From: a virus
Lineage: Duplodnaviria; Heunggongvirae; Uroviricota; Caudoviricetes
IMG/VR virus record: IMGVR_UViG_3300045049_000270
Strand: one strand, 5' to 3'
DNA length: 64,000 bases
Below, piece after piece: positions 1 through 61,756 of this stretch. Below the pieces are notes generated by a model that had not been told where the DNA came from, did no database searches, and saw nothing but the letters and a program-made list of their open reading frames with translations. How positions within the stretch are numbered: the stretch's first letter is position 1; every line of letters begins with the position of its first letter. The translations under genes were made by a program, and so were the position numbers.

Positions 1-178
1 TATCCTGTTCACTGCGCAGTAGCTCAACCATGATGAGTGCGCTCTTCAACCCGTCCAGGCGCCGTATACGCATGCCCGTCTTCAATGTGTCGAAAACGCG
101 CTGGTGATAGCTATATTCACCATCTATATGAGGTGACGCTCCATTTACAAGAATGTTAAAGCAGTGATCGATAATCAT
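1..178 (-). CDS. hypothetical protein, 5' part only (runs off window start)
   Basis: Manually translated open frame from ATG at 178 (MIIDHCFNILVNGASPHIDGEYSYHQRVFDTLKTG...) to the window edge; not in the ORF track because it is truncated. Confidence 0.4.
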   Translation of the reverse strand, partial: MIIDHCFNILVNGASPHIDGEYSYHQRVFDTLKTGMRIRRLDGLKSALIMVELLRSEQD

Positions 179-364
179 TTCAAGTTGCGCAGCCAGACAG
201 CGCTTGCGTCTTGTCAATTAGCGAAACTTCCGCGTTGTTCGCACTGTACATACGTTCACGCTGTATTGCAATGCAGCGAAAACGCTAAAACCTTCGTACC
301 ACTAACAATTTATGAATTTTTAAGCATTTATGGGCCGACCACTTTTAGGCAAAAAAGCCTTTAA

Positions 365-377
365 AATCAATGACTTA
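365..377 (+). promoter_or_regulatory. IHF-consensus site AATCAATGACTTA
   Basis: Exact match to the IHF consensus WATCAANNNNTTR in an intergenic region. Confidence 0.45.
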
Positions 378-607
378 TGATCCAAATGATCGATGAATCA
401 AGTATTGAATTCCTGTACGCCTATACAGTGTTGCGGCAACCATACGAACTTGCAACACTTTGTTAATGGTCAAACCTTGTCACTGCAGAAACACCACTTC
501 CATGAAGCAAGAATAGTAACCGTATTGAATATCGTATGTGCGACACCGCACGTTAAATGAAGTGACTGTAATTTTCGATAAAAATTACACAGATGAAGTA
601 AAACACG

Positions 608-635
608 AAAGAAGGGCCCATTTGGGCCCTTCTTT
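608..635. terminator. bidirectional intrinsic terminator
   Basis: AAAGAAGGGCCCA-TT-TGGGCCCTTCTTT hairpin just downstream of the minus-strand 660..896 gene. Confidence 0.8.
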
Positions 636-659
636 TAAGTGCTTACTAAGTTACAGTAA

Positions 660-896
660 TTAAACTGCTCGAGCTTTCGCAATTTCATAATGAACAATGC
701 GATTGCTCTGGCCGTATTTTGTTACTACCCCTTTCAAAGCCAAATTTGTGAGATGTTCACTCAGAGTGTGTTGGCGAATACCAAGCTTGCGAGCCAATGA
801 AGCTTGCGTTGGTGCAACACCAGCCTTGCGTTGCTCCTTGCGAAGAGCCTTGACGATTTGATGTTGACGATCGGTAAGAATAACTGATTTTGCCAT
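660..896 (-). CDS. stand-alone LexA-type winged-HTH DNA-binding protein
   Basis: LTDRQHQIV...GVAPTQASLARKLGI...LSEHLTNLALKGVV follows the LexA N-terminal pattern (LTxRQ..., GxPPTxxEIA...LG, HLxxLxxKG); no S24 peptidase domain. Confidence 0.7.
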   Translation of the reverse strand: MAKSVILTDRQHQIVKALRKEQRKAGVAPTQASLARKLGIRQHTLSEHLTNLALKGVVTKYGQSNRIVHYEIAKARAV

Positions 897-969
897 TTTA
901 ATGATTCCTTATGATTGTTATTTTGAACTACATCCGGAACTTCTTGTTGTTTTAATGTTCCGCGAAGCC

Positions 970-998
970 ATTGTGCAACCACATAGAAATCACGTCAA
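970..998 (-). promoter_or_regulatory. sigma70-like early promoter TTGACG-17-CACAAT
   Basis: Read on the minus strand upstream of the 660..896 gene. Confidence 0.55.
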
Positions 999-1015
999 AA
1001 TTATTTTTCTATCAA

Positions 1016-1324
1016 TTATGAAGCATCTTCATTAACACGCATTCTTGCTTCTTCATCTTCAGCGCGTCTTTTCGCTAAAAGCTGCTCTTCACTGTAGACC
1101 GGCAAATTTTTCATCACTAAGAAAGTTGATGAACCGGTTTGGTGGTGAAATTTTGTATCATGTCCGTACTTTTCAATAAGTTGTTCAATTAACACATGAA
1201 GATCAAATAGCGGTTGGTTTAAAAATTGATAAAGCCACACATGATCAATACATCGCCATTCATATCCTATTGGAGTCATATCAACACCATATAGCATTTG
1301 TGGTTCTACCATTATTTCACCCAA
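1016..1324 (-). CDS. hypothetical protein (start may be ATG at 1312)
   Basis: 102-aa ORF coupled to the stop of the upstream phosphatase gene. Confidence 0.65.
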   Translation of the reverse strand: MGEIMVEPQMLYGVDMTPIGYEWRCIDHVWLYQFLNQPLFDLHVLIEQLIEKYGHDTKFHHQTGSSTFLVMKNLPVYSEEQLLAKRRAEDEEARMRVNEDAS

Positions 1325-1935
1325 GCGAACTTATTTTCTTCGATATATTGAAAAATATGCGGAACTGAATTTTTCGCATCAAGTTCCGGCATCTTAGCTG
1401 CTGAACCAACTTCAATATGCGATAGTAGAGCCCGCATAACATAAAAGTGGTTAACACAAAGAACGTTCTGTCCCGCCGCCAGCTTTGGCAGTATTACAGA
1501 ATTGAAGAATGGAATCACTCGATCATAAACCTGCTGTTGAGTCTCACCGATTGCTGGATCACCAGGTACAGTGTCCAGATGATCATCCCAACCTTGGATC
1601 ACACCACCACCGTACATTTCTTTCAATGTAGCAGTTGGTACATATTCCGTGAAACCATACTGCCGTTCACGAAGGTCAGCATAGGTTAAAACTTCAATTG
1701 GTGGATGGTTTGCACCACTAAGGAAAGCGGCGGCTGTGAGATATGTGCGGGGATATGTTGAACAGCACGCGAAATCAAATTTGATATGACCATAAAGAGC
1801 GCTAAATTCTTGCCCAGCCGTCAAAGTGTCCTGAAACCCCTTTGGAGTAAGGAAGTTCGTTTCGTTTGGGGCAGCTTTGTGAGCTTTCGAGTTGGTATAA
1901 CTCTGTCCGTGTCGTAAAATTACTAGTTTTGCCAT
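1312..1935 (-). CDS. histidine phosphatase / phosphoglycerate mutase family protein
   Basis: LVILRHGQS catalytic motif, LTPKG, STYPRT, LRERQYG, GET, NVLCVNH. Confidence 0.9.
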   Translation of the reverse strand: MAKLVILRHGQSYTNSKAHKAAPNETNFLTPKGFQDTLTAGQEFSALYGHIKFDFACCSTYPRTYLTAAAFLSGANHPPIEVLTYADLRERQYGFTEYVPTATLKEMYGGGVIQGWDDHLDTVPGDPAIGETQQQVYDRVIPFFNSVILPKLAAGQNVLCVNHFYVMRALLSHIEVGSAAKMPELDAKNSVPHIFQYIEENKFAWVK

Positions 1936-2018
1936 TTTTTGTCCTTTTTATCTGGCAAGTATAAAGCTTTTCACATATTCATGCAACAACCGCCATTCAT
2001 ATTGGTAAATATACTCCT

Positions 2019-2459
2019 CTACAAAACGTCAGAAAATGTAACTTTGAATTGCAATGCTAGTACTTCGTCTTCAATGTGAATTATCCGACCGACATTCAGT
2101 CTACCGTCATCGGCATAGTAATCCATATATGACAGATATTCGAAACCTTCGCCTTCGCAAACAGTTGACGATTCAAATATAAGACTAATGCTTGGATTCA
2201 TTACTCCTTCTTTCATCAGAAGTAAATCATCTTTCGGCAAAGAATTCAAGAAACGGTTGTTGATGATTTCTGAAGGGAGTGAGCATCGATCAACCCATGT
2301 CATATAACCTGACTTAGTTTGGAGTTTTATTGCGCAAAGTCCAAACATTTCACGAAACCAACAAAGCATTTCATCTTGTTTTTTGAACGGAGATCGCATT
2401 TGAAGAAGCTTTGATCCACTAGTCGTGCATGAAAAATCACGTACAAAAAAGCGAGCCAT
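2019..2459 (-). CDS. hypothetical protein, FKL-motif family
   Basis: 146-aa ORF ending IHIEDEVLALQFKVTF; own promoter and GAGG SD. Confidence 0.7.
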   Translation of the reverse strand: MARFFVRDFSCTTSGSKLLQMRSPFKKQDEMLCWFREMFGLCAIKLQTKSGYMTWVDRCSLPSEIINNRFLNSLPKDDLLLMKEGVMNPSISLIFESSTVCEGEGFEYLSYMDYYADDGRLNVGRIIHIEDEVLALQFKVTFSDVL

Positions 2460-2489
2460 GACGTTACCTCTTGAAGCCTAGATATCTAA

Positions 2490-2518
2490 ATGATATATTC
2501 ACCTGTCATGTTAGTCAA
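2490..2518 (-). promoter_or_regulatory. sigma70-like promoter TTGACT-17-TATCAT
   Basis: Minus strand, about 30 nt upstream of the start at 2459. Confidence 0.65.
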
Positions 2519-2562
2519 CGCATTAGTTTCATTATAGAGTAAAAGGTGGCAACTGAACTCCT

Positions 2563-2570
2563 TATAAATA
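2563..2570 (+). promoter_or_regulatory. T4-late-like promoter TATAAATA
   Basis: 25 nt before the 2596 start; the same motif recurs before most structural genes. Confidence 0.7.
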
Positions 2571-2595
2571 TCACGATAAGATTCAGGGGTTCTAT

Positions 2596-5500
2596 ATGCC
2601 AACAATCAAAGATGGACAGATTCAGCCAGAGACTGGTAAAATCACGTATCCAGATTCAGCTACAAACGATGCAGCGTCAACAAATTCTGCATCAAGCTCA
2701 TCGAACAGTAGTGATACTAATTCTTCTACTAGTTCGAGAGCAGCGACTGATTCCAACACAATCATGTCGGTCACTGGTTTCAATATTTCAAATGAGGGCG
2801 GTGAGGGAATTCTTGCTTATGTAAACGGTGGAGAAACTACTACATTTGCATTTAAATCTTTGGCAGCTGGCACTGGCATCGCCCTTACTGCTGATGGTTC
2901 ATCAATTACAATATCTTCTACCGTGACTGGGTCCGCCGGTGATATTCTTCCAGTGATTTATGGCGGTACTGGAGTGACTAGCATGCCAGCAAATGCGCTA
3001 TTGCTAGGTAATAATACAAGCCAGATTAATTTCGTTAATGCTCCTAGTACCAACGGTCAATTTCTAACCTTTGACGGTTCAAACATTAAATGGGGTTCAA
3101 TCACCGCATCAAATGTTTCTGGATTGGCCACTGTTGCAACTTCTGGTAGCTACAATGATCTAGCCAATCAACCCCTACTTTCAACTGTTGCACATACTGG
3201 TTCTTACACTGATCTGACAAATACCCCAGTGTTGTCGGTTGTAGCAACAAGTGGATCTTATAACGATTTATTGAATAAACCAAATCTGGCGAAGGTTGCC
3301 ACATCAGGAGTTTATACCGATCTAACTGGTACTCCGGTTCTTGCAACAGTGGCCACCACCGGAAAATATAGTGATTTGACGGGAACTCCAGTATTGGCAA
3401 CCGTAGCAACAACTGGTTCATATACTGATCTTATCAACACACCAACGCCACCAACTCCATATACTTTGCCTATTGCTTCGGCAACAGTGCTTGGTGGTGT
3501 CAAAGTTAGCAGTGATTTCTCAATTTCTTCGGATGGTACTATTTCAATCCCAGCCGGTCTTGGTAGTGTCAAGTCGGTGGCATTGAATATGCCATCAATT
3601 TTCGCAGTATCAGGTTCGCCAGTTACGACCACCGGTACTTTGACTGCCGTTCTGTTGGGCCAGAATGCAAATACTTTCTTCTCGGGGCCCGCAACTGGTT
3701 CGGCAGATATCCCTACATTCCGAAAAATTGAAGGTGTAGACCTACCACCAGCAACAACATCATCATTGGGTGCGATTATTGTTGGCCCAGGATTGAATGT
3801 CGATATTTCTGGTAATTTGAGTACTGATGTTTACTCATTTATGGGTAGAACAGGTGCAATCGTGTTGCAATCAGGTGACATGGTTGATAAGAATGGTAAC
3901 TTTATTCTAGCGTCACCATCATTTGTTGGAATGCCAACTGCGCCAACACCTGCTACGACCGATAATTCTACTACATTGGCAACAACTGCATTCGTTAAGA
4001 ATGCATTGACTGCATTCAATATTCCACCCGCAACCATTTCAACCATTGGTGGTGTAATTGTTGGTTCTGGTTTGACCGTTGATAGTTCAGGCAATTTGAG
4101 TGCTAATGTCACAAAGTTCATGGGTAGAACAGGTGCCATTACATTACAACCAGCCGACTTGCAGAATCAAAACACAGGTAATTTTTTGCTTGATTCTCCA
4201 ATATTCACCGGAGCACCACAAGCACCAACGACAACAATTACCGATAATTCCAACAATATTGCGACAACATCATTTGTACATTCGTTGGTAAATGCATCAG
4301 GAGTTTCATCTTTTAATGGTAGAACTGGAGTTGTTACGTTCACATCAGCTGATTTGACAAATGCTGGGGGCGCTCCAATCAATAGTCCTGTATTCGTTGG
4401 CAATCCAACTGCCCCAACATTAGCAATTTCTGACAGCACTACTTCCCTTGCGACAACAGCATTCGTTCATAATTTGGTTAATGCATCGGGAGTTTCGACC
4501 TTTAATGGACGTTCTGGCACTGTAACTTTGCAAGCATCTGACTTGCAAACAAGTGGTGGTGCATTTCTGCTTGATTCACCAGTAATTACTGGTACCCCTA
4601 CTGCATCAACGGCCGCAACAGGTACAAATAGTAGCCAACTTGCAACCACGGCATTTGTTCAGAATACCTTAAATTCGGTTGCAGTTACAAGCGTGGCAGG
4701 TAAAACTGGGGCAGTCACCTTGTCATACACTGACATTGCTGGTGCCGCCCCAATTGATAGCCCAGTGTTTACTGGTTTACCATCAATTGACGGACATACT
4801 CCGTTCTTAATTGATGATATTGGTAATACATTAGCTACCACATCTTGGGTCTATCAAGCGCTTGCTGGTGCATCAGTGGTGAATATCGTTACTTATCCAG
4901 CTATTCCAGCAAAATACTATAACATGCCGATTATGACTTTGGTCGGCACTGTTAATACAGGTCCATATACAGTAACCCTACCAAGTACAGGTAAATGGAC
5001 AATTATTAATAATGCTGGCCCAGCTATTATCACATTGAGTTGTGGTACTGGTCAAACTCTAGATTTAGTTGGTGGCGGTATTTACGAAATTATTGCTGAT
5101 GGTGGTATCTATTTCGCAAACGAAATGGGTGTTACTCGTCCATTCAACGATAGCACCAAGTATCTGGCTACTACCGAATTCGTTGCAACCGCCATTGGCA
5201 GTTTGGCAACTGGTGTAACATCGTTCAACACTCGTACTGGTGCGATCATATTTCAAGCATCAGACATGCAAGCTACGGATGGCACGTTCCTGCTGTCATC
5301 ACCACAATTCACAGGAACTCCAACCGCCCCAACTCCCCCTGCAGGTACGAATACATCACAAATTGCTACCACAGCATTTGTTGCTAATTCGTTCGCTCCA
5401 TTAGCAAGCCCAGCATTGACAGGAACGCCAACGGCGCCTACTGCTGCCCAAGGTGATAATTCATCAACGATTGCTACTACATCGTTTGTTAATCGTTTCA

Positions 5501-7572
5501 TGAGCGGAACGGTGTCAATAAGCGCATCTGCAAATATGACATTGACTGCTGGTCAATATAGTTCTGAAATTATCGAATTTATTGGAGTTATGACTCAATC
5601 CATCGTTGTGACGGTTCCAACGTCAGGACAATGGATGATGTATAACAACACAAGCGGAGCATTTGAAATCACAATTTCAAATGGCTCGGGCTCGACTTAT
5701 GTGGTGCCACAAAATCAGTCAGCGACAATTATGTCGCTTGGTGCTTTGGGCATAGTAAATGCCAATATTGCCGGGTCAGTGTTTACTCCAGCAACCGCCA
5801 CTACGCTTGGTGGTGTAATTGTTCCAAATGGTGGTGGTATTACTGTTAATTCTAATGGTGATATCTCAATAGCACCAGGAACAGCATCTGCTCTGGGTGG
5901 AGTAAAACAAGGATCTGGTGTAACAATTGCAGGCGATGGTACACTGAGTGCGAATGTTACGTCAGTAGCTGGTAGAACAGGTGCGGTTGTTTTAACAGTA
6001 TCTGATGTAAGTGGGGCAGCTCCACTAGCAAGTCCAACATTTACTGGTGTACCAGTTGCACCAACAGCATCATCAGGTACGAATAATACACAGATTGCTA
6101 CAACTGGTTATGTTCAGAATGCTACACAAGGATTCCAATCAGTGACTGTGGCATCAGGAACGGTAGTATTGACTTCAGCACAATATTCGGTCCCGGTTAT
6201 CGTTCTGACTGGTACATTAACTGCCAATACTACCGTTCAATTTCCAACATCTGGTGCATGGTTAGTATATGTTACTGCAACCTTGGGGAGTTTCACACTG
6301 ACACTAACAAATACTGTTGGCGCCACATTAAATGTGGCTTCAAACACAGTTTATGACGTGTTATCTAATTCTTCAGCTGGTATGATACTGGTGTCATCAA
6401 CCAACAGTGTGACATCATTCAACGGCCGTACAGGCATTGTTACATTAACAACGGCTGACATTACAGGAGCTGGTGGCGCTCCAATTGCATCACCAACATT
6501 TACCGGGGCCGTAACTCTACCTGCACCACCATCGTATACGGCAAATGACTTGCATGCGGCAACAACCAATTTTGCATATCAAGCAGGTCAAGGTGTTGAA
6601 CGTATTGATATTACTGGTTTAGTATCAACCCAATCGTTCGCATTAACACCTGAACAATATCGCTATCCAATTATTGAAATTTTTGGTAATCCAAATAGTA
6701 CTGGTGTGACATTAACTTTCCCATCTAACGGCCATTGGTGGGTATATTGCAATACAAATAATGGCATAGGATGGACTGCAAATGTTCAATGTGCAACTGG
6801 TCCATCTTATACGTTGGCGGTTGGACAATGGTATGAATTTGTTGCCGATAGTGGCGCAGGTACTGGTTTGCTCCTTTTGTCGCAATCGTCTGGGAATGGC
6901 CCAAATGGCGTGCAATCATTCAATGGTCGGACCGGGGTGGTTACTTTGTCTGGTACTGATATTACGAATGCTGGCGGAGCGTTATTAGCATCACCAGCAT
7001 TTACAGGAACACCTACCGCTCCAACTGCGACTACTGGTACTAATACTACTCAATTAGCTACTACAGCATTTGTCACAACGGCAACAACAGGATTGGCACC
7101 ATTAGCATCACCAGCCTTTACTGGTACACCAACAGCGCCGACAGCAACGGCTGGTACCAATACCACCCAGTTGGCAACAACCGCATTTGTAACATCATCA
7201 TATGCTCCACTCGCATCACCCACATTTACTGGTAGAGCGCAAATTCCAGCTTCGACCTTTACTGTGACAAATCTCGGTAATGTATCTGGTACCGTAACTA
7301 TGGATTTGACTACAGCATCAGAATGGGCAATGACAATTACTGGTGCAACAACAATTGCATTTAGCAATCCACCAAATGCTGGTATGTCAGAAGTGATTTA
7401 TTTACGCATTACAAATGGTGGTTCATCGACTATTACTTGGCCAGCAAGTACTAAATTTGCTGCTGCAACTGCACCAACATTAACTGCTAGTGGTATGGAT
7501 ATGTTAGGTGTAGCGTATGATTCAGTAACATCAACATATATGGTATTCGTCATTGGTCTGAATATTGGTTAA
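2596..7572 (+). CDS. long tail fibre / virion appendage protein (1658 aa)
   Basis: Many SPxFTGTPTAPT...TTQLATTAFV, VxSFNGRTGxVTL and LATVATSGSYTDL phage fibre repeats; C-terminal domain shared with 7664..9064. Confidence 0.85.
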   Translation: MPTIKDGQIQPETGKITYPDSATNDAASTNSASSSSNSSDTNSSTSSRAATDSNTIMSVTGFNISNEGGEGILAYVNGGETTTFAFKSLAAGTGIALTADGSSITISSTVTGSAGDILPVIYGGTGVTSMPANALLLGNNTSQINFVNAPSTNGQFLTFDGSNIKWGSITASNVSGLATVATSGSYNDLANQPLLSTVAHTGSYTDLTNTPVLSVVATSGSYNDLLNKPNLAKVATSGVYTDLTGTPVLATVATTGKYSDLTGTPVLATVATTGSYTDLINTPTPPTPYTLPIASATVLGGVKVSSDFSISSDGTISIPAGLGSVKSVALNMPSIFAVSGSPVTTTGTLTAVLLGQNANTFFSGPATGSADIPTFRKIEGVDLPPATTSSLGAIIVGPGLNVDISGNLSTDVYSFMGRTGAIVLQSGDMVDKNGNFILASPSFVGMPTAPTPATTDNSTTLATTAFVKNALTAFNIPPATISTIGGVIVGSGLTVDSSGNLSANVTKFMGRTGAITLQPADLQNQNTGNFLLDSPIFTGAPQAPTTTITDNSNNIATTSFVHSLVNASGVSSFNGRTGVVTFTSADLTNAGGAPINSPVFVGNPTAPTLAISDSTTSLATTAFVHNLVNASGVSTFNGRSGTVTLQASDLQTSGGAFLLDSPVITGTPTASTAATGTNSSQLATTAFVQNTLNSVAVTSVAGKTGAVTLSYTDIAGAAPIDSPVFTGLPSIDGHTPFLIDDIGNTLATTSWVYQALAGASVVNIVTYPAIPAKYYNMPIMTLVGTVNTGPYTVTLPSTGKWTIINNAGPAIITLSCGTGQTLDLVGGGIYEIIADGGIYFANEMGVTRPFNDSTKYLATTEFVATAIGSLATGVTSFNTRTGAIIFQASDMQATDGTFLLSSPQFTGTPTAPTPPAGTNTSQIATTAFVANSFAPLASPALTGTPTAPTAAQGDNSSTIATTSFVNRFMSGTVSISASANMTLTAGQYSSEIIEFIGVMTQSIVVTVPTSGQWMMYNNTSGAFEITISNGSGSTYVVPQNQSATIMSLGALGIVNANIAGSVFTPATATTLGGVIVPNGGGITVNSNGDISIAPGTASALGGVKQGSGVTIAGDGTLSANVTSVAGRTGAVVLTVSDVSGAAPLASPTFTGVPVAPTASSGTNNTQIATTGYVQNATQGFQSVTVASGTVVLTSAQYSVPVIVLTGTLTANTTVQFPTSGAWLVYVTATLGSFTLTLTNTVGATLNVASNTVYDVLSNSSAGMILVSSTNSVTSFNGRTGIVTLTTADITGAGGAPIASPTFTGAVTLPAPPSYTANDLHAATTNFAYQAGQGVERIDITGLVSTQSFALTPEQYRYPIIEIFGNPNSTGVTLTFPSNGHWWVYCNTNNGIGWTANVQCATGPSYTLAVGQWYEFVADSGAGTGLLLLSQSSGNGPNGVQSFNGRTGVVTLSGTDITNAGGALLASPAFTGTPTAPTATTGTNTTQLATTAFVTTATTGLAPLASPAFTGTPTAPTATAGTNTTQLATTAFVTSSYAPLASPTFTGRAQIPASTFTVTNLGNVSGTVTMDLTTASEWAMTITGATTIAFSNPPNAGMSEVIYLRITNGGSSTITWPASTKFAAATAPTLTASGMDMLGVAYDSVTSTYMVFVIGLNIG

Positions 7573-7663
7573 TTTTAAATAGGGCACGATGTAGAGTGAG
7601 TTTTCTTTCTCTGCATCAGCAATAAATACGGTTTGGTTTATACCAAATCTATTAGGAGAGATT

Positions 7664-14052: not shown

Positions 14053-14754
14053 ATGGCTACATCTTTCACTGGGCGGGTCGTCAAAAATTCATATCAAGAA
14101 GTCGTCAAAATTGATAATACAGGTGCTGGTTTCGATACCACCCTTCGTAGTATCGCTGATGGCTCTGGCACTGCGAGCCAATTGAAACTTTCAACTACCA
14201 AAATTTCACTAAATGGTCAACTCTGGCCATCATCATTGGGGTCAAATGGTCAATTTCTAACGACAGATGCAAGCGGCAATTTGTCATGGGCTACGATATC
14301 AACAGGTGGTTCAACACTTTCAAGTCTAACTGATGTTACCGTTACCGAAGGGTCAAGCATTGACAAATACATGTTACGTTTTGATAATACAAGTGGCAAA
14401 TGGATTGCAGATAAAAGAATAGTTCAAATCTGTTTATTTGCCCAAGGAACTATGACAAATTCGGAGGTACTCTTGGTTTATACACCAGCAGCCACATTGA
14501 CCCTACCAGCAGGTTTAACAAATAGCGTAGCAGCATTAAAAACCGCAACTACAAATGCATTGACACTAACCATACTTAAAAATGGTTCGAGTATTGGTAC
14601 AATTAATTTTACAGCTGGTTCAACCTCAGGAACTTTCACATTCACAAATGCCGTAACATTGACTGCCGCAACTGATACACTAGAGATTGATGGGCCAGCA
14701 ACCGCCGATACTACAGCAGCCAATCTCCACGTTTCTTTCTACGCAACTTATTGA
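14053..14754 (+). CDS. short fibre/appendage protein
   Basis: First about 80 aa nearly identical to the 7664 protein; LSSLTDV module; different C-terminal domain. Confidence 0.8.
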   Translation: MATSFTGRVVKNSYQEVVKIDNTGAGFDTTLRSIADGSGTASQLKLSTTKISLNGQLWPSSLGSNGQFLTTDASGNLSWATISTGGSTLSSLTDVTVTEGSSIDKYMLRFDNTSGKWIADKRIVQICLFAQGTMTNSEVLLVYTPAATLTLPAGLTNSVAALKTATTNALTLTILKNGSSIGTINFTAGSTSGTFTFTNAVTLTAATDTLEIDGPATADTTAANLHVSFYATY

Positions 14755-14762
14755 TTATCACA

Positions 14763-14800
14763 TTTTTGTAGATTAGGCTATTGATGGCCTAATCTACAAA
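14763..14800. terminator. hairpin, probable terminator
   Basis: TTTTGTAGATTAGGC...GCCTAATCTACAAAA inverted repeat after the stop codon. Confidence 0.6.
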
Positions 14801-14877
14801 ATAAGCAATAACCCTTAATTCTGTTCAGTAATTATTGCATATTTGATTATAAATATGCTGATTACAAGGAGCAGATC

Positions 14878-16650
14878 ATGCCATCATTAACTGGACGTTC
14901 GACCAGTTCGGCATATCCTGAACTATTGAAAATTGATAATACTCAAGCAGGTCTCGATGGCAACTTACGAAGTATTGAGGATGGTTTAGGAAATCCGACA
15001 GGGATTCAAATTGGCACAAATATGGTGGCTATATTCGGCTATCAATTCCCAGCATCAGGTCTACAATCTGGTCAAGTGCTAAGAGTTAATTCAAACAATA
15101 ATGGTTTTGAAGGCCATTTATTAACATCAAATGACGTTTCTGGTCTTTCACTTATTGCAACTAGCGGCTCATATAACGATTTATTAAACAAACCTACTTT
15201 AGTTACCAAGACTTCACAGCTAATAAACGATCTTGGTTTCATCACTGCCACAACTGCACCAATAACATCAGTAGTTGGCAGAACTGGCGCCATTACCCTA
15301 GCAGTATCAGATGTGAGCGGAGCAGCTCCGCTCACAAACCCGAGCTTTACCGGTGTTCCTACGACACCAACCGCGGCTTTAGGAACAAACACTACCCAAA
15401 TTGCTTCAACTGCATTCGTTCAATCAGCATTACCAACAAAAGTTAGTCAACTCACAAATGATTCTGGTTTCTTGACGTCCGCGCCAGTAACGTCAGTTGC
15501 CGGCAAAACTGGGGCAATTATCCTCAGCACAACCGACATTTCAGGCATCAATGCTTATGCTCCATTAAATTCACCAGCATTCACAGGAACACCTACCGCT
15601 CCAACCCCAGCTTCCGGTGATAATGATACTGCAATCGCAACCACCGCATTTGTTAATTCCGTTCCATATCGGAAAAATAGAATAATTAATGGCAGATTTC
15701 AAATTTGGCAACGTGGTACATCATGGATTACTCCGCCTTCCGGAACATATACCGCAGATCGATGGAGAGTTGATTATACTGGCACATCAGCCGGCACATT
15801 TACGATTGGACAAGCTCTATCTAGAACTCACCCAGCAGGATTAATTGAATCAATTGGGCCATCCGGAGTTTTTTCATGGAATCAAACAACAACACCTAAC
15901 TTGACTTCTTTGATGCTGAGTACACGAATCGAAGGAGCACAAACACTTTCTGGTAATACCTGCACCCTGTCGTTTAATATCGCCCTAGGCGCAGGTTCAC
16001 AAAATCCTTTCACAATCGGCGTAAATCTAGCACAATGCTATGGCACTGGTGGATCTCCCTCACCAACAGTAACACAAACCACACATTCATTTACTGTTAA
16101 TAGTTCTACCTTCACAAGATTTTCTGCCACATTTACGCTGCCAGAAACAACAGGAACTTATGGAACAAATAATAATGATTATTTGGCAGTCCAATTCATT
16201 CTACCAACTAATCAATTATTCTCATTCTATCTGACAGAAGTACAATTAGAATACGGACCAGTCACCACTCCATATATGATTATGCCAGATGAAGCAGAGA
16301 TATATTATTGTCAACGATATTTCCAGAAAACATTTCCAACTAATATCACACCAGCATTTAATACAAACATCTTCGTAAGCCCATTAACTATTACCGATAC
16401 AAATGGTGGCGGTAATATAGAATGGATGAATTGGGATTTCAAAATCCCAATGCGATCAGCCCCAACAATTACCCTCTATTGCGTAGGAAATAGCTCCACT
16501 CCGTATTGGTCTACTATGACTGGAACTATTCTGGCTAAACCACTACAAACACCACTAGCAACAAATACAGGTATGTCAATAGCAACCGCTAACGGCTCTG
16601 CTAGTAATACCACTTACGTTATACACGCCACTTGCGATGCCGATCTATAA
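14878..16650 (+). CDS. tail fibre protein with receptor-binding-type C-terminus
   Basis: Shared N-module and fibre repeats, then KNRIINGRFQIWQRGTS...YTADRW...VQLEYG...CQRYF, a common phage fibre domain; TATAAATA at 14848. Confidence 0.85.
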   Translation: MPSLTGRSTSSAYPELLKIDNTQAGLDGNLRSIEDGLGNPTGIQIGTNMVAIFGYQFPASGLQSGQVLRVNSNNNGFEGHLLTSNDVSGLSLIATSGSYNDLLNKPTLVTKTSQLINDLGFITATTAPITSVVGRTGAITLAVSDVSGAAPLTNPSFTGVPTTPTAALGTNTTQIASTAFVQSALPTKVSQLTNDSGFLTSAPVTSVAGKTGAIILSTTDISGINAYAPLNSPAFTGTPTAPTPASGDNDTAIATTAFVNSVPYRKNRIINGRFQIWQRGTSWITPPSGTYTADRWRVDYTGTSAGTFTIGQALSRTHPAGLIESIGPSGVFSWNQTTTPNLTSLMLSTRIEGAQTLSGNTCTLSFNIALGAGSQNPFTIGVNLAQCYGTGGSPSPTVTQTTHSFTVNSSTFTRFSATFTLPETTGTYGTNNNDYLAVQFILPTNQLFSFYLTEVQLEYGPVTTPYMIMPDEAEIYYCQRYFQKTFPTNITPAFNTNIFVSPLTITDTNGGGNIEWMNWDFKIPMRSAPTITLYCVGNSSTPYWSTMTGTILAKPLQTPLATNTGMSIATANGSASNTTYVIHATCDADL

Positions 16651-16660
16651 GGTAAAAGAA

Positions 16661-17380
16661 ATGTATAGACTAACAAATGATCCAACTGTAATAGTCAACG
16701 AAGATACAGGACAGATAATCCCATTAGGCACTAGAGATTGGGATACATACCAAACATGGTTGGCAACCGGTAATACACCAGATCCAATACTGGATCTAGA
16801 AACAGCAATCACCATTCAAACTAATTATCTGTCAGTTTCTTGCGCTACCGAAATATATCTGGGCTTTAATTCCAATGCCCTAGGCGTATGGCGACATTAC
16901 CCAGCTAAAGATACAGATCAACAAAACTTGGCCGCATCAGTATTATCAGCAGTAGTAGCACAAATCTCACCAACATGGCAACCTAATACTAATTACATCT
17001 TTAATCAAGCCGTAACATATAACAATCAAACTTATGTCTGCACCCAAGCAGGAACATCAGGAACATCCATACCAGTCTGGCCAACACAATTAGGTAATAC
17101 TATCACAGATAATACCACACAATGGCAAATATGGTATACCACATTCTGGTGTACCGACGCTAATAATAATTGGGCTTATACCCCACACACAGCAGAACAA
17201 ATAAAACAAGCAGGCGTAGACGGTAAACTCCAAATCCTGGCTTGCTTACAACAAAATGCTACTCTAGCCGCCGAAGTTTCACAACAAACAACAGTTGAAG
17301 CCGTTCAAACAATTAATTGGATTTCTCCCGTTAGAGTAAATCAACCAGATGACACCGGATATAATCTACCAACCTCATAA
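16661..17380 (+). CDS. tail fibre assembly protein (DUF4376-like) with inserted carbohydrate-binding-like module
   Basis: IPLGTRDWDTYQTWLATGNTPDP; YPAKDTDQQNL...FWCTD...W...HTAEQI; insert WQPNTNY...YNNQTYVCTQAGTSG...PVWP; ORF track start is 16637. Confidence 0.7.
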   Translation: MYRLTNDPTVIVNEDTGQIIPLGTRDWDTYQTWLATGNTPDPILDLETAITIQTNYLSVSCATEIYLGFNSNALGVWRHYPAKDTDQQNLAASVLSAVVAQISPTWQPNTNYIFNQAVTYNNQTYVCTQAGTSGTSIPVWPTQLGNTITDNTTQWQIWYTTFWCTDANNNWAYTPHTAEQIKQAGVDGKLQILACLQQNATLAAEVSQQTTVEAVQTINWISPVRVNQPDDTGYNLPTS

Positions 17381-18573
17381 TTAAATTCACCATTAGAAAA
17401 ATTTAATTACCGCAAAGAAAATTCACCATAGAAGAATTTTATAAGGTCAATTAATATATCGCTGGTCTGGTATTTTTTAATGACTCTGGTGGAATAATGT
17501 CAAAAATGCTCCTATAGGCGATTATTCAATAGTCTACTTTCTAGAATTCACGATTTCGCGGCCGTCAGATTTTTGGCATTTTCCAGGAAGTCTTTCGGGC
17601 CAAAAAAAACTTAAATCCCGAAAAATGGCGTAAAGCTGGCGAAATTTTTATATCCAGATCACCAATTTCAGTGGCAATATCATTCTCGTCACACTCGCAT
17701 TCTAGATCTCATTCTGGAAAAATAATCCTCACGCGTAAGAGCCAATCCCCTTCCCCATTCTTTACTCATTCCAGAGATCATTTCCCGGGCCAATAATCGC
17801 TAAAAGGCTCACTACGCTTCTCCCAAACCCACACTCAGACTCTACAACGCTTCCCCACCAAGGCTCGTCTACAGGTTTCACTATCATTCTAGAAAAAGTT
17901 CACCCGAAATTCTTAGAAAATGCAATTCGAAAATACCAACACTCACGCGCACGAATTGAAAAGCCAGTCTGAAAGAAATTCCCATGCTCACTATAACTCA
18001 GATAATTAATTCAACTCTGAGAAAAAAACTCCATCAGATAACTGTAATCTCGATAACCACAACTCAGAGCTGAAAATCACCATTATCAAGAATACTGGCC
18101 CCACCATTCCTCAGATACAAACTCAGAACTTAATCACGATAACCATTACTTTTATACGTCACTAAATTCACCAAAATTAAATACAGACATTTTCTACTAT
18201 AACAACTCAGACTAAGAAAGCTTTAATAACGACAGTAATGAAAATCCTCTGAGACGAAAGAGGATGAATAACTGTGAATTAGAAAACTCAGAATAAAGAA
18301 ACAACTAGAGGAGGAAGAGGAACAACTCAGATGAAGACTCTGAGAAATACTCAGAGGATGATTTAGAAATGAATGTGGCACATCGTGAAATGCACATTTA
18401 GAAGCGTGAAATGAATATTCGTGATGATATTTAGTAAACGCTATTCAATGCCATGTTAACGATACCACGATGACGCGTTTTTTCGTGATATAAGGTTGAA
18501 CGAACGGTTAGAGGAACCGTAACCAAACATGAATGAAATAATGAAACACCTCTTTATCAAAAGATGAAAACTA

Positions 18574-19280
18574 TCTTCCTCTGAGGATGGTAATAAGATG
18601 GCAAAAGAATTAATGCCGTGTGTACATCATATTAACAAAAATCATGAAAAATCACTGTTCTTTTCACGTTTTAAACCAAATGAATAACATCTTATATTTA
18701 CTCTTTCGTCAATTCTTGAACGTGGTTAATGGTCAAAGTGTTTGTCAATATATTTTAACCATATTTTGCAACTGTATCAGATTTCTTCCTCTGAGGAAAC
18801 CATCCTTCCTCCTCAGAGGAGGAAGGATGGTTGTTGATATAAGAATTTCGAGGTTTTCGGTTCAAAATAGATGTTTCTGCAAGAATCTCGGGTGGTTGGG
18901 ATGGTTTTTGGGTTTTATAGTCTGATGGGGAGATATAACCAGGTTTCTTCCTCTGAGGGAGATTGTTCTGAGGGTGGGAGGATGGTAATAGAAGTTGTTC
19001 TGAGTGGTGTCGTCTTCCTCTGATGGAAAATGAAATTTATGGTGAAGTGTGATTTGTAAGTGATTTTATGAGATTGTTAATGAAATTATGGTATTCTTAT
19101 GATGAGTAAATATTACTCCGAGGATGGTGTTGAGTTTCTTCCTCAGAGGATGGTTATTAATCAATATTTTAATTTGGTAATATGATAATGATTATAGTTT
19201 TTGACATATGGTGTTGGGTATTAGATACACCGGAATGGTAATCTGATATTCTTATTTCTAGTTCGTGGATCTCTGAGGAT
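18574..19280. repeat. dispersed iteron-like repeats, consensus about TTCTTCCTCWGAGGATGGT
   Basis: Copies at about 18574, 18782, 18944, 19013, 19115, 19135 and 19270. Confidence 0.8.
18798..18832. repeat. perfect 35-bp palindrome
   Basis: AACCATCCTTCCTCCTC-A-GAGGAGGAAGGATGGTT (17-bp arms, 1-nt centre). Confidence 0.95.
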
Positions 19281-19390
19281 AGTGAACCAATATCATTCGT
19301 TTATACCATCTTAATAAAATAATTATATGAGTATTTCATTCCTGAGATATCGCCATAAATATTTTGTAGTGGTTTTCAGGAGATGAAATC

Positions 19391-19834
19391 ATGATCGAAA
19401 TTCGTTTTGTCGATGGCGATGGCCCTATTTCTAAATTCATAGAATTCTGGACCTGGGGCGATTGGTCACATGTCGACATCAAAACATCAGATGGCTGGCT
19501 TGGAGCACGAGCAAATGGTGGCGTAAAAATCCGCCCCTGGGACTACTGCTCATACGAAAAACAAGAAATCAGATCAATTACCCTCTCCCCCAACATAGAA
19601 CACAATATCATGAACTGGTATTACCAACAAATAGGTAAACCATATGATTTTATGGCAATCGCAGGAATGCCATTTAGAACAGACTGGCGAAACGATAGCT
19701 CATGGTTCTGCTCAGAACTCGCAATAGCAGGCTTCAATCAGTTCGGCATCGAACTCCTAAACGTAAATTACCTTAATCGCGTAACACCTCGTGATCTATA
19801 TCTGAGCCCATTACTTAAATTCCAACACACATAA
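19391..19834 (+). CDS. permuted papain-like NlpC/P60 (YaeF/YiiX, C92-like) protein
   Basis: WSHVDI (His) precedes QIGKPYD and WFCSEL (Cys); ATAAATA at 19355. Confidence 0.8.
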   Translation: MIEIRFVDGDGPISKFIEFWTWGDWSHVDIKTSDGWLGARANGGVKIRPWDYCSYEKQEIRSITLSPNIEHNIMNWYYQQIGKPYDFMAIAGMPFRTDWRNDSSWFCSELAIAGFNQFGIELLNVNYLNRVTPRDLYLSPLLKFQHT

Positions 19835-20252
19835 TACCAAATTAAATCACCATAAAAGCCATCCCCATAAACATCAAATTAGGATGGCTTCCATCACGAT
19901 AGTCCCACCACAAATATCTAATCAATCAAAAGAAATATCACTAGCAAGAACTACTACCATCTTCTCGAATGGTAATCTATTCCTCAACGAATAATTCATG
20001 AAGGTTGAAAACTAATACTTGATAGTTGGAAACCCAGATAGAACTCATAATTTTCCCCAATTACACAGTATCCCCATCCCCTGAGGAAGAACCATCTTCA
20101 CGAATGGTATCCAATATTGTCGTTCCTCCACGAATATTCATGGGGGTTTTAAGACTATCAATTACTCATTGATAATAGGCTGTGTCTATCAAACCCAGGC
20201 AGAGGTCGTGAAATATGGCATAAATATCGGTAATCGATTTTAGGAGATTCAT

Positions 20253-48049: not shown

Positions 48050-49081
48050 ATGAATGACGGTAAGATCGGTTTTTGCTGTAAATGGTTAAGTGGCTCCGGC
48101 GACAAAGATGCTGAAGCACTCATGAACTACAAAACCACAACCATCGCTTGTCTGTCACGTCTCAACGATTCCAAACTAATTGATAAACTACTAGGTCTTG
48201 TCAGCCATAATCTGGTTGTAACTACGAATCTAGTAAACTGGGTTGGAGAGCAACCCAGGCATCAACGACTGCTTCGCTTAGGCTCTGATCTTCTGCCGGC
48301 ATACACGCATGAGATTGCCAATTGGGCTTATCAAGAACCAACCATTCGAAAAGTAATTGAATCCAAATTCGAAGAAATAGGTACGATTGCTCGAGAAAAG
48401 AATGTCAGACTATCATTTCATCCTGGTCAATTTTGCGTATTGAATTCAGTAAGTGAAATTACACAACAACGGGCGATTGCAGAAATCGAATACCATGTTG
48501 AAATGATGCGTTTAATGGGTTATACGGGTGGTTGGCACAAGCACGGCGCTGCCATCAATATCCATGTTGGAAGCAAGGATGGTGGAATTCAGAGACTTCT
48601 CTCTGGGTTTTACAGTCTCAGTGAGGACGCTCGCAACCTCCTGACAATCGAGAATGATGAAATTGGTTTTGGATTAACCGCGATTGAGCCATTGGCAGAT
48701 CACATTGCACTCGTATTAGATATACACCATGAATGGGTTTACAGTGGTGGGAAATACATTACTCCTGACGATAAACGTATTGAATATGTTAAGAACAGTT
48801 GGCGCGGTGTACGTCCCCTAGGACATTATTCAGTATCTTCGAATAGTCTCATGATTGGCCATCCAGAAGACCAATTACCCGACTTTCAATCATTACGAGA
48901 TCAGGGATTACCATTGCGTGATATTCGAGCCCATAGTGATGGGTGTTGGAATCAAGCAGCTAATGATTGGGCTTTATCGCATCTTCAATGGATGGATATT
49001 GAAGTTGAAGCGCGGGAAAGGAATTTGGCTTCACAACAATTAGTTAATAGAGCAATGCAAACAGGTGTTATCAAAAACTAG
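48050..49081 (+). CDS. uvsE: UV DNA damage endonuclease
   Basis: IGFCCK, RLGSDLLP, RLSFHPGQFCVLNS, INIHVG, LTIENDE, VLDIHHEW, RAHSD. Confidence 0.92.
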   Translation: MNDGKIGFCCKWLSGSGDKDAEALMNYKTTTIACLSRLNDSKLIDKLLGLVSHNLVVTTNLVNWVGEQPRHQRLLRLGSDLLPAYTHEIANWAYQEPTIRKVIESKFEEIGTIAREKNVRLSFHPGQFCVLNSVSEITQQRAIAEIEYHVEMMRLMGYTGGWHKHGAAINIHVGSKDGGIQRLLSGFYSLSEDARNLLTIENDEIGFGLTAIEPLADHIALVLDIHHEWVYSGGKYITPDDKRIEYVKNSWRGVRPLGHYSVSSNSLMIGHPEDQLPDFQSLRDQGLPLRDIRAHSDGCWNQAANDWALSHLQWMDIEVEARERNLASQQLVNRAMQTGVIKN

Positions 49082-55661: not shown

Positions 55662-56074
55662 ATTATATTCCAACTCCAGTAATGAGTTATCATTTTAAGG
55701 CGAGATTTCAAAGCCTAACTGCTGTCTTATCTGGTATTGACCTGAATGTGCTATCAGTGCAATTGTGTTCAATCTCTGGGGTTGAATTATTGAATCCTGG
55801 CGTTGTTAAATTCCAAATTCGTACAGATGCTGACAATTTGGTAATCAAGGCACTAACCGCTATCATAGAGACCCAAACTGTACATGCTATTACAAATGGC
55901 GTTGATATTGAAATTTCTTTGGTAAATGGTGGCGGCAATGATATTTTCACAGTGCAGCTGATTGAACCTGAAATTGTGAGTATTCGATTGGCCAATTTGG
56001 ACTATAGCCTTAATGAATCAACATTGTTTGAAGTAGATATCAAATATAACGGAACAAATTATGTCACAGCCTAA
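55658..56074 (+). CDS. hypothetical protein, possibly a degenerate tail-tube-fold paralogue
   Basis: YHFKARF...ISLVNGGG...LANLDYS.NE..LFEVDIKY resembles the tube-protein pattern; weak. Confidence 0.5.
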   Translation: MNYIPTPVMSYHFKARFQSLTAVLSGIDLNVLSVQLCSISGVELLNPGVVKFQIRTDADNLVIKALTAIIETQTVHAITNGVDIEISLVNGGGNDIFTVQLIEPEIVSIRLANLDYSLNESTLFEVDIKYNGTNYVTA

Positions 56075-56444
56075 CAAACTAATCTTCGTAACTTTCGAAA
56101 AGGAAGGAATTCACAAATATCCAGCCGCACTTACGGATCCCAATCTGGCTACTGGTGATGAATACGATGTGAGCTTCCTTGGTTATCCTCATCGCCATAT
56201 GTTCCACTTTCGTGTTACTATCGAGATTGAACATTTGGATCGAGCAATTGAATTTATTCAATTTAAACGATGGTTAGAGAATTTGTATGGCAAGGATGCA
56301 ATTCTGCAACTCGATTATAAATCATGTGAAATGCTATGCCAAGATTTGTATGAACAAATCACAAACAGATATCCTGGCAGATGGATCCAAATAGAAATTT
56401 CTGAGGATGGCGAGAATGGGGCTATTCTGACGTTTCCCGTCTAA
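56061..56444 (+). CDS. queD: QueD/6-pyruvoyl-tetrahydropterin synthase-like T-fold protein
   Basis: EGIH...PHRHMFHFRV (metal-binding His), SCEML..LY (PTxENL-like), IEISEDGENGA; folE/queE context. Confidence 0.65.
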   Translation: MSQPNKLIFVTFEKEGIHKYPAALTDPNLATGDEYDVSFLGYPHRHMFHFRVTIEIEHLDRAIEFIQFKRWLENLYGKDAILQLDYKSCEMLCQDLYEQITNRYPGRWIQIEISEDGENGAILTFPV

Positions 56445-56525
56445 TAGCCAACTCAGTTGAGAATAAATGTAGGAGATCTTGTAGAGCTCCTACTTTAAAA
56501 GATTCAGTTTTGTAATCACCACCCT

Positions 56526-56939
56526 TTGGATAATATGACTGAGCAGTACATAGATTTTGAAGAAGACGTGCGAAAGTACCCAGAGTTTATTCAGCTTATG
56601 GCTGACGACGATTTCTGCATTGAACTATGGACTGCTTTTGCCAATGTTGATTGGTATAAGAAGTATGATAGTTCTTTGCCAACGACTGCCGAACAAGTTG
56701 AATTTGCATTGACCGAAGATTTTGAGCATAGAACTTGGGGAGCCAGTTTTCGTGGGATGGGCGGGGTTATAGCTGACATTAGAAATGAATTTCACGGTAC
56801 TGCTGAGGACTATATGACATGGTATTGTCGTAATCACAACAATCCATATGGATATGTGAGTGACCGAGTTCGAGAAGCTTTAAACAAAATTGGCTGGTTC
56901 CCAGTAGAATGCCAAACATATAAAGAGGCAAATCATTAA
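56526..56939 (+). CDS. conserved-type phage hypothetical protein (likely start 56535)
   Basis: WGASFRGMGGVIADIR...DYMTWYC...GYVSDRVREAL..IGW. Confidence 0.7.
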   Translation: MDNMTEQYIDFEEDVRKYPEFIQLMADDDFCIELWTAFANVDWYKKYDSSLPTTAEQVEFALTEDFEHRTWGASFRGMGGVIADIRNEFHGTAEDYMTWYCRNHNNPYGYVSDRVREALNKIGWFPVECQTYKEANH

Positions 56940-58027
56940 TGAGTACGATTTACGTTGTTTCACTTGAATCTATACCCACTAGATATACTTGCGAATGGCT
57001 AGAAGGAATCCCCACAGCAATTCGCGCATTTGCAGCAGAACATAATGTCGATGTCGATGTTGTGAATATTGTTGGTGATGACAATGAAATGCTGACAACG
57101 CCTGGTGCATTCATCAATTTTGCTGGCACTAACAAATGGAAGAGTGAGCAATCGATTAAGATTGCTAAACTCATTTCAGAAGGAAAAATCAAGGATGGTG
57201 ATAAGTTTCTGTTCACTGATGCGTGGAATCCTGTGATTCTGCAGACCAAATATATGATTGATTTGCTTGGTATCAAGGCAGAAATGTATGGCATCTGGCA
57301 TGCTGGACAATATGATTCACAAGATTTTTTGGGGCGATTGATTCCTGACAAGCGTTGGGCGCGCAATACCGAAGAGGCAATTTTCTGGGCATTGGACAAA
57401 AACATCTATGCCACTTCATTCCATGTTGGTTTGTTCAGCCAAGGTGTTTTGAGCAAGAGTGTTGACTTTCAAAATACCGACAATTCGCGTATTTTGATAT
57501 CAGGCCAACCACATGAAGGTTTGGTTCAGCATTTGACTAGTTTGCCAAGTCTTAACAAGCGTGACATGATTTTGTTTGGTCATCGTAAAGCACCCGAAAA
57601 GCAACACGACATTTTCGCAGACTTGCAAAAGTCTATGCCAGAATATGAATTCGTTACAGCACAAGATAAACAGCTCACCAAAGCAGAATATCACCAATTG
57701 CTTTGCGAAGCGAAACTTGTGTTTAGCGCAAACTTACAAGAAACTCTGGGTATTAGCCAAGTAGAAGGCATTTTATGCAATGCGTTCTCAATGAATCCAG
57801 ATCGCCTTTCTTATAAGGAAATGTTCCTGAGTGAATTCAAGTATCCATCAGAGTGGACGGAAAGTTTCGATTCATATTTGGAACACAAAGAAGAAATCAT
57901 GGCGTATATTCGTAATGTCATGAAAAATTATCAATCGTATTTGCCCATTATTCAATTGCAGAAAGAACGTTTGATTAATGATTTCTTCACCGCCGATGTA
58001 ATGTATAGCAAATTGCTTGGCATTTAA
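56939..58027 (+). CDS. GT-B (GT4-like) glycosyltransferase
   Basis: HRKAPEKQ donor-binding loop and EX7E motif ETLGISQVE; N-lobe FTDAWNP...WHAGQYD. Confidence 0.8.
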   Translation: MSTIYVVSLESIPTRYTCEWLEGIPTAIRAFAAEHNVDVDVVNIVGDDNEMLTTPGAFINFAGTNKWKSEQSIKIAKLISEGKIKDGDKFLFTDAWNPVILQTKYMIDLLGIKAEMYGIWHAGQYDSQDFLGRLIPDKRWARNTEEAIFWALDKNIYATSFHVGLFSQGVLSKSVDFQNTDNSRILISGQPHEGLVQHLTSLPSLNKRDMILFGHRKAPEKQHDIFADLQKSMPEYEFVTAQDKQLTKAEYHQLLCEAKLVFSANLQETLGISQVEGILCNAFSMNPDRLSYKEMFLSEFKYPSEWTESFDSYLEHKEEIMAYIRNVMKNYQSYLPIIQLQKERLINDFFTADVMYSKLLGI

Positions 58028-58030
58028 ATT

Positions 58031-58067
58031 TTGACACTGGCAGGAAGCTGGTTTACAATGCTAAATA
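58031..58067 (+). promoter_or_regulatory. tandem sigma70-like (TTGACA-17-TACAAT) and late-like (CTAAATA) promoters for folE
   Basis: TTGACA 58031, TACAAT 58054, CTAAATA 58061. Confidence 0.7.
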
Positions 58068-58147
58068 GAAGTAGAGATGGCACGAGGTTGTCTCTACTCT
58101 CTATAGCAAGAGGCTGTAGTAGAATAATAATGCAATAAGAGGTTGCA

Positions 58148-60146: not shown

Positions 60147-60163
60147 TCCACTCTGAGTAGCGA

Positions 60164-60189
60164 AGGTTGCCAGTCTAAAGTAGACTGGC
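60164..60189 (+). repeat. 26-bp stem-loop direct repeat, copy 1
   Basis: AGGTTGCCAGTCT-AAAG-TAGACTGGC. Confidence 0.85.
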
Positions 60190-60210
60190 ATATCTTTTTC
60201 TGAGGTCGGT

Positions 60211-61473: not shown

Positions 61474-61478
61474 TGCAT

Positions 61479-61504
61479 AGGTTGCCAGTCTTTGCTAGAC
61501 TGGC
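61479..61504 (+). repeat. 26-bp stem-loop direct repeat, copy 2
   Basis: AGGTTGCCAGTCT-TTGC-TAGACTGGC. Confidence 0.85.
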
Positions 61505-61521
61505 TGCTTATAGGAACAATT

Positions 61522-61749: not shown

Positions 61750-61756
61750 GAACAAA

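Follow-up and report, generated by a model that had tools for sequence, protein, structure and literature searches.

The DNA analyzed here is a stretch of 64,000 nucleotides (the window) from a jumbo phage, carrying genes for tail fibres, spanins, DnaJ, ClpA, and a family B polymerase whose nearest cultured counterparts are those of Sinorhizobium phage Phosso (52%), Agrobacterium phage Atu_ph07 (49%), and RaK2-like phages (42%). Between a run of tail-fibre-type genes and a 147-aa gene lies a non-coding island (Table 1), which the initial annotation had singled out and which is indeed the longest internal gene-free gap of the window, the next gaps being 418 and 378 nt long. The sole open reading frame within it (101 codons, 18620-18925) had no match in Pfam or PHROG and no counterpart in either relative that shares the island. 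These relatives are G001, a complete record of 523,836 nt, and L031/L032, metagenome contigs of one population with 99.8% mutual identity; all genome-wide tests were run on G001 as a stand-in for the window's own genome. The presence of homologous islands in G001 and L031 disposes of the objection that the region might be an assembly artefact.

Table 1. Features of the island and its surroundings (window coordinates)
Feature	Position	Strand	Remarks
Tail-fibre-type genes	14053..17380	+	Fourfold-degenerate sites turn A/C-rich towards the island
Non-coding island	17381..19390	.	Single-copy in the complete relative G001
Best-conserved block	17490..17760	.	83% identity to G001; weak L031 match (E 2e-5)
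A-tracts about 10 nt apart	17602-17649		Within block 17490..17760
Left arm	17834..18331	+	A/C-rich top strand; 8 CTCAGA half-sites; unphased
Centre	18306..18358	.	Purine tract, then three sites 12 nt apart; motif orientation changes; candidate cut site
Conserved motif-poor core	18360..18570	.	TCGTGA copies; weak L031 match (E 2e-3); folding z -2.5 to +0.1
Right arm	18573..19283	+	G/T-rich top strand; CCTCWGAGG odd-palindrome array
Perfect 17-bp hairpin	18798..18832	.	Three strain alleles, two being inverted forms of each other
147-aa gene	19391..19834	+	phrog_1128; most A/C-biased synonymous sites; upstream of dispersed element
Element copy 1	19984..20058	+	Two conserved boxes and a variable spacer
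Reversed copy of right-arm palindrome unit	20074..20091	-	
Element copy 2	20127..20220	+	Followed by late-promoter-like CATAAATA at 20219

The island core is 74% identical between the window and G001, with 13 of 20 indels of non-triplet length, and the region around the centre reaches 79%. In L031 the architecture is kept despite sequence divergence; blastn found no match of the island there, and profiles gave weak matches only. The island is single-copy in G001, where no second copy of the island blocks was found. Searches of the island against Rfam and for tRNAs found nothing, and sigma70 promoters were not in excess. RNA folding of the best-conserved block did not exceed that of shuffles (z -0.6 to -1.5), and the spacing of its A-tracts points to a possible DNA bend. 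Comparison of the island and the second intergenic DNA with cultured phages yielded chance matches only, and no homolog of the gene at 20253 was found among them. L002 was dismissed because it matches by chance only, within coding sequence of a virus that is unrelated. In addition, 85 matches in bacterial or archaeal contigs (1-3 per locus) were judged unrelated from titles alone, and further viral scans returned G001 and L164 only.

Several features of the wider genome were also recorded. G001 encodes a T4-type large terminase (PF03237/PF17289) and portal (PF07230), together with gp32, RecA, a UvsW-type helicase, and a primase-like Toprim protein. Relatives carry 3 or 4 additional genes between the island and the 147-aa gene (L001 5309-9039; L031 4191-8801), which are absent in the window. 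Positions 1-7565 of the window are inverted and displaced by about 49 kb relative to G001 451.4-458.5 kb, with a breakpoint between tail-fibre genes near 7600. Genes for FolE and QueE at 56061-62776 of the window and a QueC-like gene in G001 (L026) suggest 7-deazaguanine DNA modification, and modified G tracts could thin the sequencing cover at the island centre. At 183-442 kb of G001, ARAGORN gives a permuted tmRNA along with 59 tRNA genes, one of which has the anticodon TCA.

The island is defined by a short repeat. All nine CTCAGA copies listed in the initial annotation were found within 1 nt (17834, 17997, 18063, 18110, 18122, 18206, 18287, 18326, and 18350), and further copies lie at 18812 and 19142. 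Their rarity elsewhere was borne out, as CTCAGA and TCTGAG together occur 20 times in the 2-kb island and 20 times in the other 62 kb (Poisson ~1e-22). Both are the core of an odd palindrome, CCTCWGAGG, and are 30-fold enriched in the island; the shorter form CCTCWGAG occurs six times inside the island and nowhere else in the window. Genome-wide, all 11 copies of CCTCWGAGG in G001 fall in its island (2 for a reversed control word), so that confinement of the motif holds on this scale as well. The reported flip in motif orientation is merely suggestive in the window alone (8:2 versus 3:7, Fisher p 0.07), but it is evident in the relatives (10:1 versus 1:14 in G001, 10:0 versus 1:15 in L031) and on pooling the three phages, where CTCAGA:TCTGAG is 28:3 on the left and 5:36 on the right, with the flip at about 18,330-18,335; part of it is due to the base skew itself. 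The second motif that had been proposed is present, but is weak as a marker (TCGTGA 3 copies inside and 16 outside, CGTGAAAT 2 and 2), and the right half holds one TCGTGA copy in G001 and none in L031.

The two arms differ in helical phasing. In the right arm of G001, 13 sites keep helical phase with a period of 10.44 bp (R 0.87, p 0.0003, period scanned). The right-arm sites of L031 are phased at the same period (n=13, R 0.71, p 0.0005; scanning the period for 12 sites gave p 0.055), and phasing was not significant in the window (n=10, R 0.49, p 0.09). CTCAGA sites of the left arm gave p 0.20, 0.58, and 0.79 in the three phages. The 12+12 spacing of the centre sites is found in G001 too. The second-largest CTCAGA/TCTGAG cluster of G001 falls at the counterpart of the reversed palindrome unit downstream of the island. 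A long fold-back between the arms was rejected, as the left arm and the reverse-complemented right arm align no better than shuffles in all three phages. A second GCGAAATTTT at G001 414.8 kb was also set aside, because it lies within an ORF.

The base composition of the two strands switches across the island. The counts on which this claim had been based are exact (3 G and 14 C at 18121-18180; 16 G and 0 C at 19021-19080), and cumulative G-C of the window reaches its minimum at 18,249. Relative to the motif centre, the switch peaks at -80 nt in the window, 0 in G001, and +65 nt in L031. The bias extends into synonymous sites of the neighbouring genes: the fourfold-site G+T fraction of genes nearing the island from the left is 0.46, 0.37, 0.36, and 0.24, against 0.46-0.56 further left, and among 430 genes of G001 only one ranks below the gene that adjoins the island. 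That one is the 147-aa gene, with G+T of 0.21 in G001, 0.19 in the window, and 0.25 in L031. When footprints of the dispersed element described below were masked, the left residual in G001 was -0.19 within 2.5 kb, -0.09 at 2.5-5 kb, and about -0.06 at 10-30 kb; the bin at 5-7.5 kb was close to zero, and right of the island the residual was +0.03. Across G001, the island is the strongest all-site switch (z 6.1; 0.169 versus 0.119) and ranks first by synonymous sites at a window size of 3 kb and second at 5 kb. A two-sided asymmetry of this kind, reaching synonymous sites, would be expected if DNA were synthesized outward from a centre.

The skew of the whole genome gives a different picture from that predicted for a bidirectional origin. 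Cumulative G-C of G001 is nearly monotonic (+8,988 at 491.5 kb, final value +8,244) and has no V shape, its only long dip being of about 38 kb and ending just past the island. Because of this course, a bidirectional origin of the bacterial type is not supported, and the origin proposal retains its unique conserved site, oriented repeats, and two-sided asymmetry. Near-monotonic cumulative skew is read as unidirectional replication in two reports (PMC7162821, PMC11242549).

Contig ends bear on the centre of the island. In run X3, contigs of 99 kb and 58 kb break off at 18325 and 18331 without overhanging sequence, and the first base of L032, which belongs to the divergent phage, is homologous to 18320; contigs of two phages stop within 11 nt of the island centre, at 18320-18331. 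A low-depth piece of X5 begins at 18322, an end that means little as X5 consists of 7 pieces over 2 kb. On the other hand, the assemblies of X1, G001, L031, and the window run straight through the centre. All of this evidence comes from assembled contigs, the depths of which cannot show a coverage step, and X1, X3, and X5 come under a single sample. The X3 ends could equally well reflect a strain bubble at the centre, and a filtered record would look alike. X3 shows 15 SNPs and 6 indels over 2 kb. At the hairpin, X3 has a 3-nt deletion and a central A>T change, and X5 a 3-nt deletion in the other arm (one contig, depth 3.7); these three alleles, from low-depth contigs, are consistent with template switching. 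In the low-depth X5 contig, a 13-nt insertion at window 17975 adds a CTCAGA in left-arm orientation.

The synonymous switch was calibrated on known origins and on mapped genome ends. At five origins, namely T4 oriE, oriF, and oriG (oriA and oriC were left out), lambda ori, and the T7 primary origin, whose position we took in part from the phi1.1 promoters, z ranged from -1.5 to 2.3, compared with 4.5-5.9 at the island; the signal thus does not mark phage origins in general. The largest gap of RaK2 coincides with both the top synonymous switch (z 5.3-6.0) and the top 7-mer cluster, and the PhageTerm terminus of Muenster maps inside that gap. Ten mapped terminal-repeat boundaries of five related jumbo phages (Muenster, Ec-M-J, CBB, PA5oct, and XacN1) were then considered, with null windows that overlap, so that the fractions given are not independent p-values. 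A clear switch occurs at half of them (Muenster left, Ec-M-J left, PA5oct left, and both ends of XacN1), each topping every other sampled place in the surrounding 20-40 kb, with peaks -150 to +275 nt from the cut. The switch is weaker at the PA5oct right end (0.039), and it is not clear at the remaining four, namely both ends of CBB (0.10 and 0.06) and the right ends of Muenster (0.65) and Ec-M-J (0.77). A packaging site or terminus, which had been listed as an alternative, is consequently placed slightly ahead of an origin, as the switch marks some of the relatives' terminal-repeat ends, but with the reservation that 4 of 10 do not show it clearly.

Some further observations on these relatives fall outside the count of ends. 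No dominant switch was found in Phosso; the switch of Atu_ph07 (z 7.1, 332 kb) lies next to tRNA-like genes and lacks a repeat array, and XbC2 has one at the record start with no annotated repeat. In Atu_ph07, an unannotated stretch of about 450 nt (~331,000-331,450; L050 11000-11450, minus strand) follows a strong sigma70-like promoter and precedes a tRNA-like sequence, and may be a structured RNA. In RaK2 (L120-L137), the 7-mer AGTACTG occurs 914 times genome-wide and 33 times in 2 kb at the terminus (gap 224,600-226,563); the ends of CBB, Muenster, and Ec-M-J are rich in it too. By eye, both cut sites of each of the latter three genomes (L145-L153) share an inverted word, approximately T|TAG(C/T)G, and this cut motif of the enterobacterial relatives was not apparent at the island centre.

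A second type of repeat was found just downstream, where the gap at 19,835-20,252 contains two copies of a bipartite element whose boxes are 24-56 nt apart. A sequence-only profile located 23 copies at 16 loci on both strands of G001, and none in Atu_ph07 or Phosso; the island itself has no significant copy. In the kilobase upstream of the element, on its strand, synonymous sites are A/C-shifted by -0.151 +/- 0.012, followed by -0.044 and -0.035 further out, whereas the shift downstream is about zero and 2,000 random placements reach at most -0.053. The upstream shift is independent of gene strand (-0.18, -0.13), and 2 of the 16 loci have a shift of -0.04 only. Of the next 21 switches in G001, 12 lie at most 900 nt from an element, compared with 5.9% of the genome. 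When loci less than 5 kb apart are merged, 14 remain at a spacing of 28-55 kb (about 37 kb) with a CV of 0.22, which none of 20,000 random sets matched; unmerged, the CV is 0.41 (1 of 20,000). Spacing and locus count rest on one complete genome, G001, and another relative, L164, has the element with the same upstream bias.

With regard to the nature of the element, a hairpin was rejected (no consensus fold; z averaged -0.76, with 4 of 28 copies below -2), the length of the spacer shows no phasing, and a matrix gave no significance to a 13-nt match between island core and element box (0.09-0.9 such matches expected in 2 kb). The second intergenic region was considered as the other boundary of a terminal repeat; this idea is weakened, its element being one of the 16 loci, while the reversed palindrome copies keep it possible. 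A degenerate copy at 48583-48641 (minus strand) lies inside a UvdE gene, as in the matching G001 gene (27.7 kb), and the box that closes its reverse strand differs by a single base from the late-promoter-like word. The word (C/T)ATAAATA, likely a late promoter, precedes most structural genes (2563, 14848, 19354, 20219, 25004, 32916, 33363, 40548, 42513, and 49425); the CATAAATA copy in the second intergenic region resembles the T4 late promoter.

Considering these data, we tentatively read the island as a genome end or packaging site with end-primed outward synthesis, at a probability of roughly 0.45. The physical end of the packaged genome likely lies near 18,320-18,331, and DNA is likely copied outward both ways from the island. 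What points to an end is the switch at mapped ends of related jumbo phages, the coincidence of gap, switch, and repeat cluster in RaK2, the peak of the island's own switch close to the motif centre, the contig ends, the single copy, the rank of the island as the strongest switch in G001, and the T4-like proteins. From these we infer cutting at the centre, a binding protein, and outward synthesis. In the proposed mechanism, a DNA-binding oligomer (the small terminase subunit or a partner) would occupy one face of the array in the right arm as well as the half-sites of the left arm, and cutting at the centre would fall to the large terminase, which is of T4 type. After infection, the fixed 3' ends could invade homologous DNA with the help of RecA/UvsX, gp32, and UvsW-type proteins, or a nick could be extended; either would prime outward synthesis that displaces the outward-running strand. 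Single-stranded DNA gains T and G by deamination (C>T, A>G), and the displaced strand, left single-stranded, would collect such changes, producing the A/C-left, G/T-right polarity. The island would then be both genome end and replication start zone. T4 forks start from invading ends (PMC3016281), and in ICP1 a rolling-circle start is linked to the pac site (PMC7145576), which means that end and origin need not be separate.

Against an end stands the observation that 16 internal loci of G001 make the same footprint, which is therefore not specific to ends. The context differs as well, since the 20-66-kb terminal repeats of the relatives adjoin small early genes and the island lies among late tail-fibre genes. 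Apart from element loci, no second boundary 20-66 kb away and no comparable non-element switch was found in G001. As a long repeat would not break an assembly, the type of end would differ from that of the relatives; if the island is an end, there would be little or no redundancy, or the partner boundary would be the nearby intergenic region with the reversed palindrome copies.

That internal element loci also leave a footprint keeps an origin in play, and the close rival, somewhat less likely than an end, is that the island is an internal primary origin and not an end. An initiator would bind the phased palindromes, the duplex would open near the centre, and primers would run outward both ways; the leftward fork would cover some tens of kilobases with most synthesis going one way, and the dispersed elements would serve as secondary one-way priming sites. 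The footprints at the 16 non-terminal loci, evenly spaced as origins would be, accord with this, as do the left-side bias of about -0.06 out to 30 kb, the sole long skew dip ending just past the island, and the four assemblies that cross the centre; in T4, likewise, several origins lie between structural genes, and a cluster of direct repeats accompanies one of them (PMC3016281). However, an internal origin leaves the contig ends unexplained, V-shaped skew is missing in G001, and the five calibrated origins fall well below the island in z. The island has no AT-rich stretch at a fixed place (the lowest-GC windows lie at different offsets in the three phages), no sigma70 excess, and no element copy, and no initiator family was found among 175 scanned G001 proteins, out of 237 listed at at least 170-190 aa.

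It is improbable that the island is instead a protein-docking array for genome organisation, recombination, or late-gene control, with skew arising from local nicking, resection, or transcription and contig ends from a hypervariable centre. One-face phasing over at least 600 bp, rapid repeat turnover among strains (the X3 differences and the hairpin inversion alleles), and the late-promoter-like boxes next at 19354 and 20219 agree with such an array, but the bias extends kilobases into genes, and the centre ranks among the better-conserved parts. HU/IHF families were absent in the G001 search, and the ParB family had 0 matches in G001, with control matches in 11 of 14 genomes, so that the segregation site suggested initially has no support here. 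Very improbable is that the island encodes long non-coding RNA, as one or two transcripts that either run outward or fold back across it. Palindrome-bearing blocks do fold below shuffles (z -2.5 to -5.7), and PA5oct carries non-coding RNAs in gaps (PMC7318152); yet low energies occur on both strands, the motif-free core gives z -2.5 to +0.1 with a fold that differs in each of the three phages, the best-conserved block folds no better than shuffles, the arms align no better than these either, no Rfam match was found, and helical phasing indicates duplex DNA.

Among known systems, the ends of RaK2-like jumbo phages (Muenster/RaK2, vB_Ec-M-J, CBB, PA5oct, and XacN1) are from the same broad clade (polB 42-52% identity) and share a long non-coding gap, a local repeat cluster, A-tracts, and an A/C-to-G/T switch near the mapped cut. 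They have no sequence homology to the island, the one 13-mer in common with the XacN1 right end being explicable by chance, and they are 20-66-kb repeats opening the early region, unlike the island with its tail-fibre context, other motif, and no partner boundary found. Iteron origins such as lambda ori, the PLE ori, and RSF1010 oriV likewise have repeated, partly palindromic sites in non-coding DNA. They consist of 3-5 tandem 18-22-mers, whereas the island has 20-26 short sites over 1.5-1.9 kb with flipping orientation and no adjacent rep gene, and lambda ori has no switch. Arrays of short sites and bent DNA beside a cut are also known from the T7 terminal repeat with its flanking heptamer arrays, SPP1 pac, and lambda cos; the island differs in being mirror-oriented about one centre, on a kilobase scale, in a myovirus with a T4-type terminase. 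The island works like known packaging and start sites, but lacks some defining features both of an iteron origin (an AT-rich unwinding stretch at a fixed place) and of a long terminal repeat (a second boundary). The dispersed element has a parallel in the baculovirus homologous regions, short conserved elements spread around a large viral genome, but it is polar, non-palindromic, mostly present in 1-3 copies per locus, and evenly spaced. T4 is similar in that replication starts at several places among the structural genes, that priming runs one way and displaces a strand, and that its type of replication and recombination proteins is found in G001; it differs in that its tested origins have no such footprint, and that its permuted ends leave end-primed starts not localised. 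T4 origins have no common motif (PMC3016281), and the architecture in the Matilda preprint (10.64898/2026.10.21.760668) is a different one. A literature search, which took in few subscription papers, returned no account of the island, the element, or a skew footprint at jumbo-phage ends.

How replication starts and how ends are defined in 500-kb phages is largely unknown, and the published statements found (PMC7162821, PMC11242549) rest on whole-genome skew alone. If the end reading is true, a local synonymous-site switch would predict the termini of uncultured RaK2-like jumbo phages from assemblies, and would here give a base-level prediction of a terminus at 18,320-18,331. In addition, the evenly spaced polar element marks 16 candidate start sites in one genome, G001. 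It is conceivable, though rather unlikely, that half-megabase phages of this lineage replicate from a grid of start sites, in which a master two-way island, also the genome end, is joined by a bipartite element every 28-55 kb that primes one-way displacement synthesis. If true, a bacteriophage would have a multi-origin system that is defined by sequence and spaced evenly, and mutational footprints alone would suffice to read it.
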